A stretch of 32,000 bases of DNA from Pseudoalteromonas tetraodonis (lineage in GTDB: Bacteria > Pseudomonadota > Gammaproteobacteria > Enterobacterales > Alteromonadaceae). Positions within the stretch are counted from its first letter, which is position 1, and every line of letters begins with the position of its first letter. This document shows, in pieces, positions 3,214 to 20,186 of the stretch. Where the stretch lies: positions 1,680,001 to 1,712,000 of the forward strand of contig NZ_CP011041.1 in the NCBI RefSeq assembly GCF_002310835.1, in the 5' to 3' direction. A program made the translations under genes and the position numbers. Under the pieces are notes generated by a model. That model saw only the letters and a program-made list of their open reading frames with translations, did no database searches and was not told the origin of the DNA.

Positions 3214-5204
3214 TAAGCACCTTCCTGAACAGTCGTATCTTCAACAATGGCTAACAGTGCGCCGTGTGAAACTAGTTCACCTTCACCAAAGCAGTAACTC
3301 TGTAATATGCCGTCATGCGGTGCATTAAGTGTATATTCCATTTTCATGGCTTCGATAATAACAACGGCATCACCTTTAGTGATAGTGCTACCTACTTCAA
3401 TTAAATGTTTTACTACCGTGCCATTGAGTGGCGCAGCGAGCGGCAGCGCGTCATTTTCGTGTGAACTAATATAATGTTTATCAACATATTCAAACTTAGT
3501 TTGCAGTGCTTTATTCATTACAGTAATTGCATTGTCAGTTATGCTGACATGTGCGCTGTGCTTTTCACCGTTAATAAATACGTTGCACACACCATTATTT
3601 AACGTCCCTTGAACACTGTATACGCCCGTACTGTGTGTCACATTGTAACCCTGCGCAGTTTTGATAGCGCTTAGCGGTAAATCTACAAATGGGATTTTAA
3701 TTGCCTGCGGTGCATTTAAAGTAAACCCACTCAGTTGTTGCCAAGGGCTGGCACTATTGTTTTGTGCTTGGTGCGTGTTTAACGACTCTAAATAGGCAAA
3801 AGCGGCAATAAGCTGGCTTGATAGCAATAATGACTCATCAACTGCAGCGAGTGAATCACCTTGCTCAGCAATAAAGTGTGTACTTGGCGCGCCTTGTTTA
3901 AAACTTGCGTGGCAAGCTAAGTTATGTAAAAAGCCAATATTGGTACTAAAGCCTGCTAAATGAAATTGCTCAAGCGCCTGTTGCAAACGAGAAAGCGCTT
4001 GTTCGCGATTATCATCATGAACAATTAACTTTGCAATCATTGGGTCGTAGTAGGGGCTTATTTCATCACCTTGGGCAATCCCGGTATCTATGCGTACAAA
4101 TTCACTATTAACGGGGACATGTAGCGCTTCAATGGTGCCTGAGCACGGAATAAAGTCATTTGCAGGGTCTTCGGCGTAAATACGCGCTTCAAAGCTATGG
4201 CCTTGCAGTTGAATATCAGATTGCTTTAACGGCAGTGTTTGCCCGCCCGCAATATTAATTTGCCAGTTCACTAAATCAACACCGGTCACCATTTCGGTCA
4301 CTGGGTGCTCTACTTGCAGGCGAGTGTTCATTTCCATAAAGAAAAATTCATTACCGCAAAGTAAAAACTCAACAGTACCCGCACCACGGTAATTAATGGC
4401 TAATGCACAGCGTACAGCCGCTTCGCCCATTTCTTTACGCAGCGCGTCAGATAAACCTGGAGCAGGGGCTTCTTCAATCACTTTTTGGTGTCGGCGTTGC
4501 AACGAACAGTCACGATCACCCAAATAAACACAATTACCGTGATTATCTGCAAATACTTGTACTTCAACATGGCGAGGTTGATTAACGTAGCGCTCTAATA
4601 GCACTAAATCGTTACCAAAACCGGCAATGGCTTCACGTTGGGCGCCTTCAAGTGCAGCTATAAAGTCTTTCGGCTTTTCTACCACTCGCATCCCTTTACC
4701 GCCACCGCCAAAGGCCGCTTTGATAAGAACAGGGTAACCAATTTTTTCAGCCTCAGATTGCAAAAAAACAGGGTCTTGTTTATCACCATAGTAACCAGGT
4801 ACCAAAGGAACGTTTGCCGCGGCCATTATTTCTTTAGCACGGGTTTTTGAGCCCATTGCTTCAATACTCGTTGCTGGTGGGCCAATAAAAGCAATGTTAT
4901 TTGCTTCACAGGCTTTAGCAAATTCACTGTTTTCTGATAAAAAGCCGTAGCCTGGATGAATGCAATCAGCGCCACTGGCTTTAGCAACCTGCAAAATTTT
5001 ATCTGCGACTAGGTATGAATCTTTACTTGGCGCAGCACCAATATGGTAGGCTTCGTCGGCCATTTTTACATGTTGCGCGTTTTTATCTGCATCTGAATAC
5101 ACCGCAACCGTGGTTAAGCCCATTTGCTTTGCGGTGCGCATAATACGACAGGCAATTTCGCCACGGTTAGCAATCAGAATTTTTTGTAATTGTACTGTGT
5201 TCAT
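3213..5204 (-). CDS. liuD: 3-Methylcrotonyl-CoA carboxylase alpha subunit (biotin carboxylase plus BCCP domain)
   Basis: It contains KILIANRGEIACR, an ATP-grasp core and a C-terminal biotinylation motif EAMKME. The track ORF extends to 5225, but the ATG at 5204 (MNTVQLQKILIANRGE) has an AGGA Shine-Dalgarno 5 nt upstream and avoids overlapping liuC. Confidence 0.93.
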   Translation of the reverse strand: MNTVQLQKILIANRGEIACRIMRTAKQMGLTTVAVYSDADKNAQHVKMADEAYHIGAAPSKDSYLVADKILQVAKASGADCIHPGYGFLSENSEFAKACEANNIAFIGPPATSIEAMGSKTRAKEIMAAANVPLVPGYYGDKQDPVFLQSEAEKIGYPVLIKAAFGGGGKGMRVVEKPKDFIAALEGAQREAIAGFGNDLVLLERYVNQPRHVEVQVFADNHGNCVYLGDRDCSLQRRHQKVIEEAPAPGLSDALRKEMGEAAVRCALAINYRGAGTVEFLLCGNEFFFMEMNTRLQVEHPVTEMVTGVDLVNWQINIAGGQTLPLKQSDIQLQGHSFEARIYAEDPANDFIPCSGTIEALHVPVNSEFVRIDTGIAQGDEISPYYDPMIAKLIVHDDNREQALSRLQQALEQFHLAGFSTNIGFLHNLACHASFKQGAPSTHFIAEQGDSLAAVDESLLLSSQLIAAFAYLESLNTHQAQNNSASPWQQLSGFTLNAPQAIKIPFVDLPLSAIKTAQGYNVTHSTGVYSVQGTLNNGVCNVFINGEKHSAHVSITDNAITVMNKALQTKFEYVDKHYISSHENDALPLAAPLNGTVVKHLIEVGSTITKGDAVVIIEAMKMEYTLNAPHDGILQSYCFGEGELVSHGALLAIVEDTTVQEGA

Positions 5205-17346: not shown

Positions 17347-17779
17347 ATGTATCCGTAAACGTAGTACCTCCATTAATCGCATACCACTGCCATAAAGTAA
17401 TCCACAGGGTAAATAATGCTTCGCAGAGCACACTTTAAAAAATTGTTTATTTCTTGTTGCGTTAAAACTACCGGTAGTTTAGTTGCTCGTTTACCCTTAA
17501 TAAAACCTAATGATAATGAGAGTGGCTTTTTAATCACTTCTTTAAATAAAAAGTTAAACGCATTTAAGGCTTGTGATTGAGTATTAGAAGCAACATTTTG
17601 TTGGTTGACTAAATGATTTAAAAAAGTTCGACCTCATTATCTCACATCGTTGTAGGGTGCCTCATAGAGTTAAAACGAATAAACGAAGCTATCCAGTATA
17701 AATAAGCTTTAACGGTACTTTTAGCATAACGCTTTAGATACATTTGTTCGGCTATCATAGTTAAAAAAGGTGATTTCAT
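17347..17779 (-). pseudogene. intI: Integron integrase (IntI) remnant. Only the N-terminal ~145 codons remain, with an in-frame TGA, at least two frameshifts and a 3' truncation.
   Basis: The minus-strand translation from the ATG (complement of 17777-17779) reads as follows.
- First segment: MKSPFLTMIAEQMYLKRYAKSTVKAYLYWIASFIRFNSMRHPTTM*DNEVELF.
- After a -1 shift in a T6 run: LNHLVNQQNVASNTQSQALNAFNFLFKEVIKKPLSLSLGFIKGKRATKLPVVLTQQEINNFLK.
- After a second shift: LPCGLLYGSGMRLMEVLRLRI.
Similarity stops at about 17347. The pattern matches my recollection of VchIntIA (MKSQFL..YAKKTIEAYLHWI..HP..MGDKEVEEFL..VA.KTQS.ALN..FLYKE..K.PLSL...KLPVVLT..LLYGSGLRLME..RLR). No ORF of this locus appears in the track. 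Confidence 0.8.
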
Positions 17780-18408: not shown

Positions 18409-18420
18409 AAATAAATAAAC

Positions 18421-18438
18421 TGACACCCACTCTAATTT
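18421..18438. repeat. Left terminal inverted repeat of the Y1-transposase element
   Basis: TGACACCCACTCTAATTT. Its reverse-complement partner is at 19789-19806. Confidence 0.7.
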
Positions 18439-18710
18439 TTGCAGTTTGGCGAACTAAGTACTAGGCTTTAATCAGTGTGAAAAAAGCTGGGTGTCTTATG
18501 GCAATCGCAAGAAAGCGTCAAGTAAGCTTGGTTGATACAAAGTATTATCACTGTATTTCACGTTGCGTTCGTCGTGCTTTCTTGTGCGGTGAAGACCATT
18601 TTATTGGTCAATCGTATGAGCATCGCAGAAGGGTGGGTTGAAGATAAGTTACTCGCACTAACCAAGGTATTTTGTATTGACGTATGTGCTTATGCTGTTA
18701 TGAGTAACCA

Positions 18711-18778
18711 GCAAAATGTCGGAACATTTTACAACAGCGCAGCTGGCCCGGAGGGCGGAAGGCAGGATGCCTGAAGTA
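18711..18778 (-). repeat. ~68-nt structured repeat (MITE/REP-like), copy 1, inserted inside the HUH motif of the transposase
   Basis: Removing it restores AAC CAC ACG CAT TTA GTG (N-H-T-H-L-V). It contains the hairpins AAAATG/CATTTT, GCCC/GGGC and AGGCA/TGCCT. Its reverse complement aligns with copy 2: CATCC(A)TG, CCCTYCGGGC, then a terminal A/T hairpin. Confidence 0.6.
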
Positions 18779-19049
18779 CACGCATTTAGTGTTGTATGTA
18801 GATGATAAGAAAGCTAATAGGTTAAATGATAAAGCGATTGTTATTCGCTGGCACAAGCTGTGCAAAGGCACCGTACTTACGCAAAAGTACATACAAGGCG
18901 AAAAGCTAAGCAAAGCCGAACTTTTCTTTTTTAATCAAACAGTAAAGGAATACCGAGAGCGCTTATCAAGTATTAGCTGGTTTATGCGGTCGTTAAATGA
19001 AGACATTGCGCGCAGAGCAAATAAAGAAGATAACTGCACTGGCAGGTTT

Positions 19050-19121
19050 TATTCGCTGCCATCCATGGCGCTCACCCTTCGGGCTGCCTAACGGCATTCA
19101 AATTTATTCCCTATAAATTTA
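19050..19121 (+). repeat. ~72-nt structured repeat (MITE/REP-like), copy 2, inserted between GRF and WEGRF codons of the transposase
   Basis: Removing it restores GGC AGG TTT TGG GAA GGT. It contains GCCAT-cc-ATGGC, CCC-ttc-GGG and the terminal hairpin AAATTTAT-tccc-ATAAATTT. It carries an in-frame TAA. Its boundaries are ambiguous by a few nt because of flanking T/A runs. Confidence 0.6.
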
Positions 19122-19641
19122 TGGGAAGGTCGCTTTAAATCACAAGCACTCCTTGATGAAGCGGCGCTTGCCGCGTGTATTGCATACGTCGATTTAAACC
19201 CTATTAGGGCTAAGATGGCTATCACTCCAGAAGAGTCTCACCATACCAGTTTACAAAAACGCTTAATATACGCAAAAGAAGGCAAGCAGCCAAAACAACT
19301 ACTTCGCTTTGCAGGTATGCCGAGTCAAATTATGCCAAAAGGGCTGCCGTTTAAGCTTAAGTCGTATCTTGAATTAGTTGAATTAACAGGGAGAATAATG
19401 CGAAAGGATAAACTCGGCCATATTGATAACACTCAACTTCCTTTACTGGAAAGACTCAATATATCTCCTGAAAACTGGTTAAAACTCACTACACAATTTA
19501 CACTCGTATTTCACGGCGCAGTTGGCAGGCCGACCTCACAAGCAAGTTATTGTGAAAATTTGAATCGAAAACGGCGAGCTAATACAAGTAATTGTGAAAG
19601 GCTATTAGCATAAACTATAAATTACTCAGTAGAAAAGTTGA

Positions 19642-19788: not shown

Positions 19789-19806
19789 AAATTAAAGTGG
19801 GTGTCA
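19789..19806. repeat. Right terminal inverted repeat of the Y1-transposase element
   Basis: AAATTAAAGTGGGTGTCA, the reverse complement of the left repeat with one mismatch. Confidence 0.7.
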
Positions 19807-19818
19807 TGTTAGTTCATC

Positions 19819-20186
19819 ATGTTAGTTAGAGCGCTGTCAGATGCTAATTTGTTGTTGATAATAAAGTACGTGTTCAATGTCAATTATCAAACCTATGGTA
19901 GCCCGCGCGTATTTCATTCGCTAAAAAAGAAGGTGTGAACATAAGCCAAAAGCGTGTTGCCTGCTTAATGCTAGAAAACGGTTTAAGAGCCAAAGCATTT
20001 AATAATTACAGTAAACCGGCGAAGGTGAAGTTCTTTTATAAAGAGGTGTCAAAATTAAAGGGTTATCTAGACTATTTTTATAATAGACAGCGATTGCATT
20101 CAAGTTTAGGATATAAATTGTCTGCTGAGTTTGAATCGGCAGTTAATTGAAACGTGGACGGTGTCAACTTTATCGGGTGAAGATCA
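19819..20186 (+). pseudogene. IS3-family transposase (OrfB) remnant with a frameshift and an internal deletion of the DDE core, plus the IS right inverted repeat
   Basis: - The N-terminal OrfB-like piece reads RALSDANLLLIIKYVFNVNYQTYGSPRVFHSLKK.
- After a frameshift in an A run it continues GVNISQKRVACLMLENGLRAK.
- It then jumps to the C-terminal signature YLDYFYNRQRLHSSLGYKLSAEFE (track ORF 19935-20150).
- The downstream sequence, read in reverse complement, is TGATCTTCACCCGATAAAGTTGACACCGTCCACG, which is IS3-like (TG...CA ends, GGACAC-type core). It ends at 20186. Confidence 0.7.

Follow-up and report, generated by a model that had tools for sequence, protein, structure and literature searches.

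Small hairpin-forming repeats such as REPs and BIMEs are abundant and poorly understood in bacteria, and their mode of movement is still debated. The locus studied here raises this question in a particular form. In a stretch of 32,000 nucleotides from Pseudoalteromonas tetraodonis, the whole of which is called the window below, two segments of about 70 nt lie inside the gene of a transposase, and a previous reading of the window, made from its sequence alone, took them for two related, oppositely oriented copies of a miniature repeat that had colonised and killed a gene of the very superfamily thought to mobilise REPs. Are these segments true insertions and members of one mobile family, by what route did they enter the gene, and is it a matter of chance that a gene of this kind was hit?

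Two insertions in a RAYT-like transposase gene

The gene and the repeats that surround it are placed as follows.

18498..19613, plus strand: pseudogene of a RAYT-like Y1 (HUH) transposase, 324 codons after removal of two inserts and one base
18629..18630, plus strand: +1 frameshift, an extra A in AGA-A-GGG, where orthologues read HRRGWVE
18413..18438, plus strand: left arm (ACTGACACCCACT..) of a 26-nt inverted repeat around the transposase unit, the pair being 85% complementary
19789..19814, plus strand: right arm (..TAATTT) of the same 26-nt inverted repeat, 85% complementary to the left arm

When 18711-18778 (68 nt) and 19050-19121 (72 nt) are excised, three ORF fragments become one frame with its stop at 19613, just as the sequence-only reading had claimed for each deletion; the repaired protein reads ...CAYAVMSN-HTH-LVLYVDD... 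at the first site and ...NCTGRF-WEGRFKSQALLDE... (CTGRF-WEGRFKSQ) at the second. A third disabling change was overlooked in that reading, namely the +1 frameshift at 18629/18630, whose extra A leaves the first 45 codons at the N-terminus out of frame. The repaired transposase has 324 aa, and more than 100 intact Pseudoalteromonas orthologues of equal length cover it at 100%, the best with 93% identity. All of them are gap-free at both insert sites, so that neither segment is a natural in-frame part of the protein, and H71-T72-H73, W162-E-G-R-F166 and Y183, the last in the motif AYVDLNPIRA, are invariant. Among intact genes P0001 is the nearest to the window gene; its locus (L001) is syntenic, having genes for a peptidase M17 and a protein kinase downstream as the window does, and the blastn alignment of the window gene to this locus breaks precisely at both inserts, where L001 is contiguous (1412/1412 and 1682/1681). 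Since both segments are absent from the intact orthologues and from the syntenic locus, they are true insertions into a once-intact gene.

The host protein is probably, to judge from its sequence, a distant Y1 HUH (IS200/RAYT-like) transposase with profile matches below the cut-offs: Pfam Y1_Tnp matches residues 16-82 (5e-4, 20.6 bits against a cut-off of 23) and NCBIfam REP_Tyr_transpos residues 131-199 (5.6e-10, 39 bits against a cut-off of 80), in the expected order. With the HUH motif and the Tyr invariant, the earlier placement in the superfamily presumed to mobilise REPs is probably right, at this distance. The names given to homologues in their sources include 'REP element-mobilizing transposase RayT' and 'Transposase IS200-like'; a PDB sequence search with the protein gave no match, and its AlphaFold model (pLDDT 41.7) was unusable.

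The disrupted allele is present in all 10 contigs retrieved of the window's species, at 99.93-100% identity, among them the NCBI genome GCA_007991235.1 and marine metagenome contigs (one from TARA), and no empty/filled polymorphism at the transposase inserts occurs among these 10. The window transposase is a dead pseudogene common to several related Pseudoalteromonas lineages.

Homology of the transposase unit with other loci begins and stops at the arms of the 26-nt inverted repeat, which are probably the transposase's own ends and unrelated to the inserted element; an extra GGGTGTC copy at about 18490 is able to pair with the left arm. Other members of the same transposase family (L002-L005 and L006) are interrupted by IS66 and IS5-like insertions, so that mobile elements of various kinds often land in this gene family. 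Two truncated homologues, P0056 and P0100, were considered as further hosts of the element found in the window and rejected, as they are broken by IS66 and IS5-like elements. Just downstream of the transposase, a 71-aa ORF (19935-20150, plus strand) with weak integrase-core (rve) and HTH_21 matches is probably the remnant of an IS3-family transposase. On the other side, integron-integrase-like gene fragments lie at 17373-17779 (minus strand), where a 45-aa ORF (17642-17779) has a PF13495 match of 2.7e-9; intI-like ORFs were also seen near two homologous transposase loci of Pseudoalteromonas sp. ZZD1 (L146 and L149) and in L135. The RAYT-like gene may thus sit in a decayed integron or cassette region.

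Structure of the element

The two inserts and their hairpins (hp1 to hp4, each on the element's own strand) are:

18711..18778, minus strand: copy 1 of the four-hairpin element, 68 nt, antisense to the transposase; 58.0 bits, E 3.5e-9
Copy 1 hairpins: hp1 18772-18760, hp2 18756-18746, hp3 18745-18735, hp4 18732-18711
19050..19121, plus strand: copy 2 of the four-hairpin element, 72 nt, sense to the transposase; 79.3 bits, E 3.5e-13
Copy 2 hairpins: hp1 19055-19071, hp2 19075-19083, hp3 19085-19096, hp4 19100-19120

Copy 1 lies in codon H71, with which the HUH motif (H71-T-H73) begins, and separates its second base from the third, which bears out the earlier statement that the motif is split, and copy 2 lies between F161 and W162 (CTGRF|WEGRF), where it adds an in-frame TAA; premature stops are introduced by each copy. 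The boundaries are ambiguous by a single base: on the plus strand this is an A at copy 1 and a T at copy 2, so that each element, read along its own strand, has a T there.

Folded as single-stranded DNA, both inserts give the same succession of four hairpins (z-scores -3.0 to -3.6), three short GC stems being followed by a terminal AT-rich stem with a TCC-type loop. The terminal hairpin noticed at first is therefore found in both folds, while the 'two or three short GC hairpins' of the sequence-only reading holds for the three GC stems and falls short of the total of four. An HMM built from 87 copies in other genomes, from which the window and homologous transposase genes were left out, gives two matches only in the 32-kb window, copy 2 at E 3.5e-13 and copy 1 at E 3.5e-9, on opposite strands, and covariance model R1 with filters off scores them at 79.3 and 58.0 bits and finds nothing more at E<1. 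The relatedness proposed from the sequence is thus not a chance similarity.

In general the element is 68-78 nt long, with a peak at 72-76 nt. Its 5' part consists of a short AYTC-like leader, hp1 with the loop (C)ATCC(N)T and hp2 of the form CCC-UUCG/UCCG-GGG, and its 3' part of a variable hp3, the linker TYCAAA, hp4 with a TCC-type loop and the end TTT(G/T)T; hp4 is often an A-tract/stem/T-tract module. In an alignment of 93 sequences, 93.0% of the cells are paired, compared with 71.3% in column shuffles and 32-48% when the partners are slid, and double-sided changes occupy 418 cells where 123 are expected. Such changes occur in all nine pairs of hp4, all four of hp3 and three of five in hp1, and hp2 (CCC/GGG with the loop UUCG or UCCG) does not vary, a constancy due in part to the search pattern, which demanded it. 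The four serial hairpins are strongly supported by this covariation, which fits a single-stranded DNA fold and an RNA fold equally. No GTAG head appears anywhere in the alignment, nor any conserved RYYYAAC/GTTRRRY pair, GCCTAAC being limited to the variable hp3 of one subfamily.

Distribution of the family

Plain similarity searches found nothing of the four-hairpin family, and it was recovered only by a structure-aware degenerate pattern. A degenerate pattern across hairpins 1-2 matched 73 places in viral contigs, 16 of them with the full architecture, and a stricter one yielded at least 120 loci in species-representative genomes, nearly all of them full four-hairpin elements. Among the matches listed, most hosts belong to the Gammaproteobacteria (Pseudomonas, Rhodanobacter, Dyella, Lysobacter, Stenotrophomonas, Pseudoxanthomonas, Halomonas, Methylophaga, Microbulbifer, Cellvibrionaceae, Rheinheimera, Shewanella, Paraglaciecola and Pseudoalteromonas), and a few are MAGs of Zetaproteobacteria, Desulfuromonadales, Myxococcota or Bdellovibrio. 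The covariance model has 127 matches at E<1e-3 in 686 kb, tandem and inverted dimers among them, and 641 of 5,426 complete E. coli genomes carry one to three copies. The four-hairpin family is widespread across Gammaproteobacteria and not specific to this genome, in line with the earlier proposal of a miniature non-autonomous repeat family with further copies.

In the window's own genome the situation is different in number. A blastn search of both copies against the window, L001 and Pseudoalteromonas plasmid/chromid records returned nothing besides themselves, and with only two copies in 32 kb and none in the plasmid/chromid records, the family appears to be low-copy in this genome and may no longer be active there.

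Rfam searches with the window and 13 copy-bearing loci, at gathering and permissive thresholds, gave no family and nothing relevant at E<=10, and literature searches on Pseudoalteromonas MITEs, 70-bp insertions in ERIC, the sequence motif and terminator-associated repeats did not bring up the family. We could find no description, in Rfam or in the literature searched, of a family that is widespread and structurally well-defined.

Junctions and targets

Junction statistics were taken over 109 distinct copies. The base that precedes the element is T in 90%, the final element base is T in 91%, and both are T in 91 of the 109; along the flank the share of T rises from position -5 to -1 as 46, 53, 62, 69 and 90%, and on the 3' side the flank opens with C or G in 79% and with T in 4%. 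Of the 109 copies, 72 finish in TTTGT or TTTTT, and the orientation relative to the T-tract is constant in all of them. Copies thus insert in one orientation and behind a T, as a rule the final one of a T-tract. There are no terminal inverted repeats among these copies, the AYTC-like 5' end and the TTT(G/T)T 3' end being non-complementary, and no target-site duplication, as empty/filled comparisons leave a 1-nt ambiguity only. The flank of a copy resembles the 3' end of that copy a little beyond expectation: the agreement of the flank pentamer with the 3' pentamer of the same copy is 2.85, against 2.67 +/- 0.06 after shuffling, and 2 of 2000 shuffles reach 2.85.

These junctions bear on one possible agent, a site-specific recombinase such as the neighbouring integron integrase, acting at secondary sites on the element as a folded attC-like substrate. 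In its favour, the window has remnants of an integron integrase 0.7 kb upstream, intI-like ORFs occur near the ZZD1 copies, the element is a foldable single strand, and copy 2 contains GCCTAAC. However, insertion at secondary sites predicts G|TT, whereas in 90% of copies the flank ends in T, and its continuation begins with C or G in 79% and hardly ever (4%) with T; the GCCTAAC motif is restricted to hp3 of one subfamily, and most copies lie in genomes and at sites without integrons. We regard this account as most improbable. The related reading of the element as an integron attC site or gene cassette was rejected, since the junctions are not G|TT and a conserved R''/R' core-site pair is lacking.

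The targets fall into sharply different classes. The first is the T-tract tail of intrinsic terminators, and in 24% of copies, as against 7% of controls, the last base of a perfect GC-rich stem is found no more than 9 nt upstream of the junction. The second is the antisense T-loop of tRNA or tmRNA sequences (GGATT|CGAACC), with copies placed as follows.

L098 6270-7435; L158 51-243; L205 6758-6987: antisense, in tRNA/tmRNA T-loops
L193 2311-2552; L161 2586-2797; L198 1552-1751: antisense, in tRNA/tmRNA T-loops
L131 2018-2366; L121 6837-7347; L123 4394-4591: antisense, in tRNA/tmRNA T-loops

The sequence hit is nearly always a partial copy of the 3' half just downstream of an intact gene, which is one for tRNA-Ser, Gln, Glu, Arg or Met, or for tmRNA. 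Because most are partial copies, ARAGORN detected nothing in the repaired tRNA genes around copies; the neighbouring intact tRNAs were confirmed afterwards. In L098 a composite of element, tRNA-like piece and terminator is arrayed with a period of 163-164 on either side of tRNA-Ser, and one possible origin of the partial tRNA copies is flanking DNA transduced by the element.

The third class is a fixed internal position of ERIC, seen in both E. coli loci inspected, and the fourth is the loop of a second palindromic repeat, GGTTACTTCTCTT...AAGAGAAGTGACYC, in Rhodanobacteraceae.

L090 2500-2578: copy nested in ERIC, E. coli UTI89, yehK-yehL
L091 2500-2583 and 4525-4600: copies nested in ERIC, second E. 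coli locus
L111, L164, L172, L179, L195, L207, L213: copies nested in the second palindrome, Rhodanobacteraceae

Among E. coli strains the yehK-yehL region occurs with ERIC and a 78-nt element, with ERIC alone, or with no ERIC. The same Rhodanobacteraceae also hold a composite repeat with several CATCC-loop hairpins (L137, L160, L163, L188 and L213). Tandem arrays are found in L156 (76-nt period, 4.4 copies) and L124 (73-nt period), and they fit the fact that the element's 3' T-tract recreates its own target. As to copies within genes, the spanning-ORF test is unreliable in GC-rich genomes, and the credible cases are those in transposase genes and a single one in L180, a Cellvibrionaceae MAG, where a 72-nt copy at about 5078-5156 lies antisense, in frame and stop-free inside an Rhs/YD-repeat ORF that gains 24 codons through it (377 to 401).

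The preference for terminator tails raises a second alternative, namely that the element acts at the RNA level, as a structured RNA reverse-transcribed into DNA or one kept for a function in the transcript such as termination or mRNA stabilisation. The hp2 loops UUCG, UCCG or UGCG resemble RNA UNCG tetraloops and hint at selection on the transcript, hp4 often has the terminator-like A-tract/stem/T-tract form, many copies lie directly 3' of terminators, as class C group II introns prefer, and the covariation is as compatible with RNA as with single-stranded DNA. That same covariation cannot separate the two, though, and there is neither an Rfam match nor any ribozyme or reverse-transcriptase component; moreover, copies are antisense to tRNA genes and stand in both orientations within the transposase gene, and hp4 of the window copies fails a terminator scan. 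An RNA-level origin or role is quite unlikely in our judgement.

One site filled in homologous transposase genes

A copy-2-type element occupies the identical T-G-R-F|W-E-G-R site in the window and at least five further loci, which among the matches listed are L146, L149, L148, L190 and L201. The hosts are Pseudoalteromonas sp. ZZD1, where L146 and L149 are paralogous transposase loci 140 kb apart, Pseudoalteromonas sp. MSK9-3, Shewanella basaltis and a Paraglaciecola MAG. The DNA at the junction is invariant (G.TT.T|GGGAAGG.CG). Across the six host genes the coding flanks are 61-86% identical and the elements 83-100%; in the ZZD1 paralogues the flanks are 77-86% identical and differ within 5-8 nt of both junctions, and the elements are 100% identical. 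That the elements resemble one another more than the host genes do argues for site-specific homing, and of the coincidence, self-targeting or competition among which the sequence-only reading did not choose, coincidence is unlikely for this insert, given that six homologues, diverged and spread over three genera, are occupied at this one position. Both ZZD1 transposase genes are intact except for the element, and further stops or frameshifts occur in the window, Shewanella and MSK9-3 genes; the loci with such lesions are the window's, L190, L201, L214 and L215. The simplest reading of these sequences would be repeated site-specific insertion that inactivates the transposase, followed by decay. 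Few examples exist of a mobile element that disables another one specifically, and the repeated insertion into the best conserved coding stretch of RAYT-like genes is among them.

The insert at the HUH site behaves otherwise. A metagenome scan for any insert of 60-80 nt at this site gave four contigs, all from window-related lineages with flanks 76-100% identical (identical to the window's in L216), and the RF|WEGR insert is present in all three that reach far enough (L214, L216 and L217). As it is accompanied by the RF|WEGR insert on every contig long enough to show this, the HUH-site insert seems to have been passed on as part of a double-hit pseudogene and not to have arisen repeatedly. Its 3' flank (T|GGTTACT) is similar to sequences beside related copies elsewhere, a likeness that hints, weakly, at sequence-directed target choice.

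Such inheritance could be taken further, to the view that the element is a passenger, and that one or a few ancient insertions in Alteromonadales have since spread by inheritance, horizontal transfer of the transposase gene and short-patch gene conversion between paralogues only, which would mean that in this order the element has ceased to move on its own. The confinement of the HUH-site insert to related lineages in the company of the RF|WEGR insert (L214, L216, L217 and the window), the one allele shared at 99.93-100% identity by the 10 contigs of the window's species, and the lack of an additional copy in the window or the plasmid collection all agree with this. Against it, the ZZD1 paralogues differ so near to the junctions (within 5-8 nt) that a conversion tract would need to match the element, the elements are more similar than the coding flanks across three genera, and the family occupies many unrelated sites elsewhere. 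We consider pure inheritance and conversion unlikely, while giving it serious weight.

One may also ask whether the element is a reversible switch, precisely excised either as DNA by an HUH enzyme or from mRNA and so regulating the transposase. Excision by HUH enzymes is seamless by mechanism, the two ZZD1 genes are otherwise intact, and the RF|WEGR site lies in the most conserved coding stretch, as do the sites of homing introns and inteins. But the extra stops and frameshifts in the window gene, L190, L201, L214 and L215 indicate decay after insertion, the element places a TAA in frame, and no empty/filled polymorphism exists among the 10 contigs of the window's species, all of which makes a switch very unlikely.

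Proposed mechanism

The reading that we prefer, and hold to be somewhat probable, is that of a mobile non-autonomous element with homing of its copy-2 subfamily, presumably moved in trans by HUH single-stranded DNA 'peel-and-paste'. Elements of the IS200/IS605 family have subterminal hairpins, no inverted terminal repeats and no duplication; they insert orientation-specifically 3' of a short T-rich motif and leave seamless empty sites, and for IS608 and ISDra2 HUH single-strand 'peel-and-paste' transposition is established. In the family studied here, precise insertion free of duplication, the fixed orientation, the hairpins near both ends and the likeness of the 3' end to the target are hallmarks of such transposition, and of the REP/RAYT relationship as well, and they point to a Y1 HUH enzyme of the IS200/IS605 or RAYT type, acting in trans, as the most likely mobiliser. 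The terminal hairpins would serve such an enzyme as recognition sites, and its cuts would fall at the left just 3' of the flank T-tract and at the right just 3' of the TTT(G/T)T that closes the element; in copy 2 these points would be after GGTTTT and after AAATTTAT. Copy 2 entered the RF|WEGRF-coding site and copy 1 the HUH-coding site of the RAYT-like gene; on the preferred reading the frameshift came after the insertions, and the copy-2 subfamily homes to G.TT.T|GGGAAGG.CG in Pseudoalteromonas, Shewanella and Paraglaciecola.

The unrelated 26-nt inverted repeats around the RAYT-like gene suggest that this transposase is the victim and not the mobiliser. Clustering of ORFs in about 0.8 Mb of genome loci, a small sample, revealed no transposase recurring beside copies, and we found no autonomous element with the same ends as the four-hairpin element. 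Complementarity of the leader to the target, in the manner of the IS608 guide, or of hp2 to GGGAAGG was judged by eye and was unconvincing, and the opposite orientations of the two window copies do not easily fit a strict lagging-strand bias.

A bolder extension, which we put forward tentatively and think doubtful, is that the family belongs to an unrecognised class of self-guided homing single-stranded DNA elements whose subfamilies have been retargeted to different precise sites. Target choice would then be encoded within the element of about 75 nt itself, the sites being terminator tails, tRNA/tmRNA T-loops, ERIC and the catalytic-motif coding DNA of RAYT-like transposases, and the Alteromonadales subfamily would be a hyperparasite or a host-favoured 'silencer' that inactivates HUH transposase genes, perhaps reversibly. 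In any case the four-hairpin family is clean material, with one-base boundaries, covarying structure, a simple junction rule and sharply distinct targets of its subfamilies, and it makes the mobilisation mechanism and the target choice directly testable with oligonucleotides and a candidate HUH enzyme.

Comparison with known systems

The label 'REP/MITE-like' given at first is right in part: the family shows REP/IS200-type miniature behaviour and yet fails the defining tests for REP, classical MITE and attC. Like the REP/BIME repeats (REPINs), it consists of short hairpin-forming non-coding repeats of Gammaproteobacteria, often downstream of genes or terminators, with tandem and inverted clusters and with presumed Y1 HUH mobilisation of single strands; such tandem or inverted dimers are seen in other genomes, and the window's only two copies are both intragenic. 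A REP, however, is a single palindrome of 20-40 nt with a GTAG/CGTC head, whereas this element has four hairpins with conserved linkers in 68-78 nt and enters genes, tRNA T-loops and other repeats at defined positions. Unlike the arrangement of REP and RAYT (REPtron), it stands inside a RAYT-like gene and not on its flanks, and the gene has inverted repeats of its own that are unrelated.

It agrees with IS200/IS605 elements and PATEs in having subterminal hairpins at both ends, in lacking terminal inverted repeats and duplication, in inserting in a set orientation 3' of a short T-rich motif, and in leaving seamless empty sites. It differs from IS200/IS605 in its two additional internal hairpins and in that no tnpA/tnpB partner with the same ends was found, and from IS608 in its shorter hairpin-to-end distances and in that guide-target pairing is not demonstrable. 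Classical MITEs (Correia, RUP, Nezha) are likewise small, non-autonomous, structured and gene-disrupting, but they have terminal inverted repeats and target-site duplications, and the four-hairpin family has neither. Rickettsia palindromic elements (RPE) are also small palindromic repeats able to sit within coding genes, as the copy in L180 does; in contrast to them, the window copies kill their gene through stops or a frameshift, and the element, which is found in free-living Gammaproteobacteria, is unrelated to them in sequence and architecture.

Class C (IIC) group II introns are said, in work of Robart et al. from 2007, to target DNA just after the terminator T-tract. The four-hairpin element resembles them in inserting right after the T-tract of intrinsic terminators in one orientation, and is unlike them in having about 75 nt, no ribozyme domains and no reverse transcriptase. 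As regards ERIC (IRU), it is itself a 127-bp imperfect palindrome and merely the host of a nested four-hairpin element, and the extra segment of about 78 nt in some 'long' ERIC copies of E. coli is a member of the family. Wilson and Sharp reportedly noted insertions of about 70 bp in ERIC in 2006, which we take to match this nested 78-nt segment. The family may possibly explain the 'long' ERIC copies, together with many unannotated structured segments that lie by terminators and tRNA genes.
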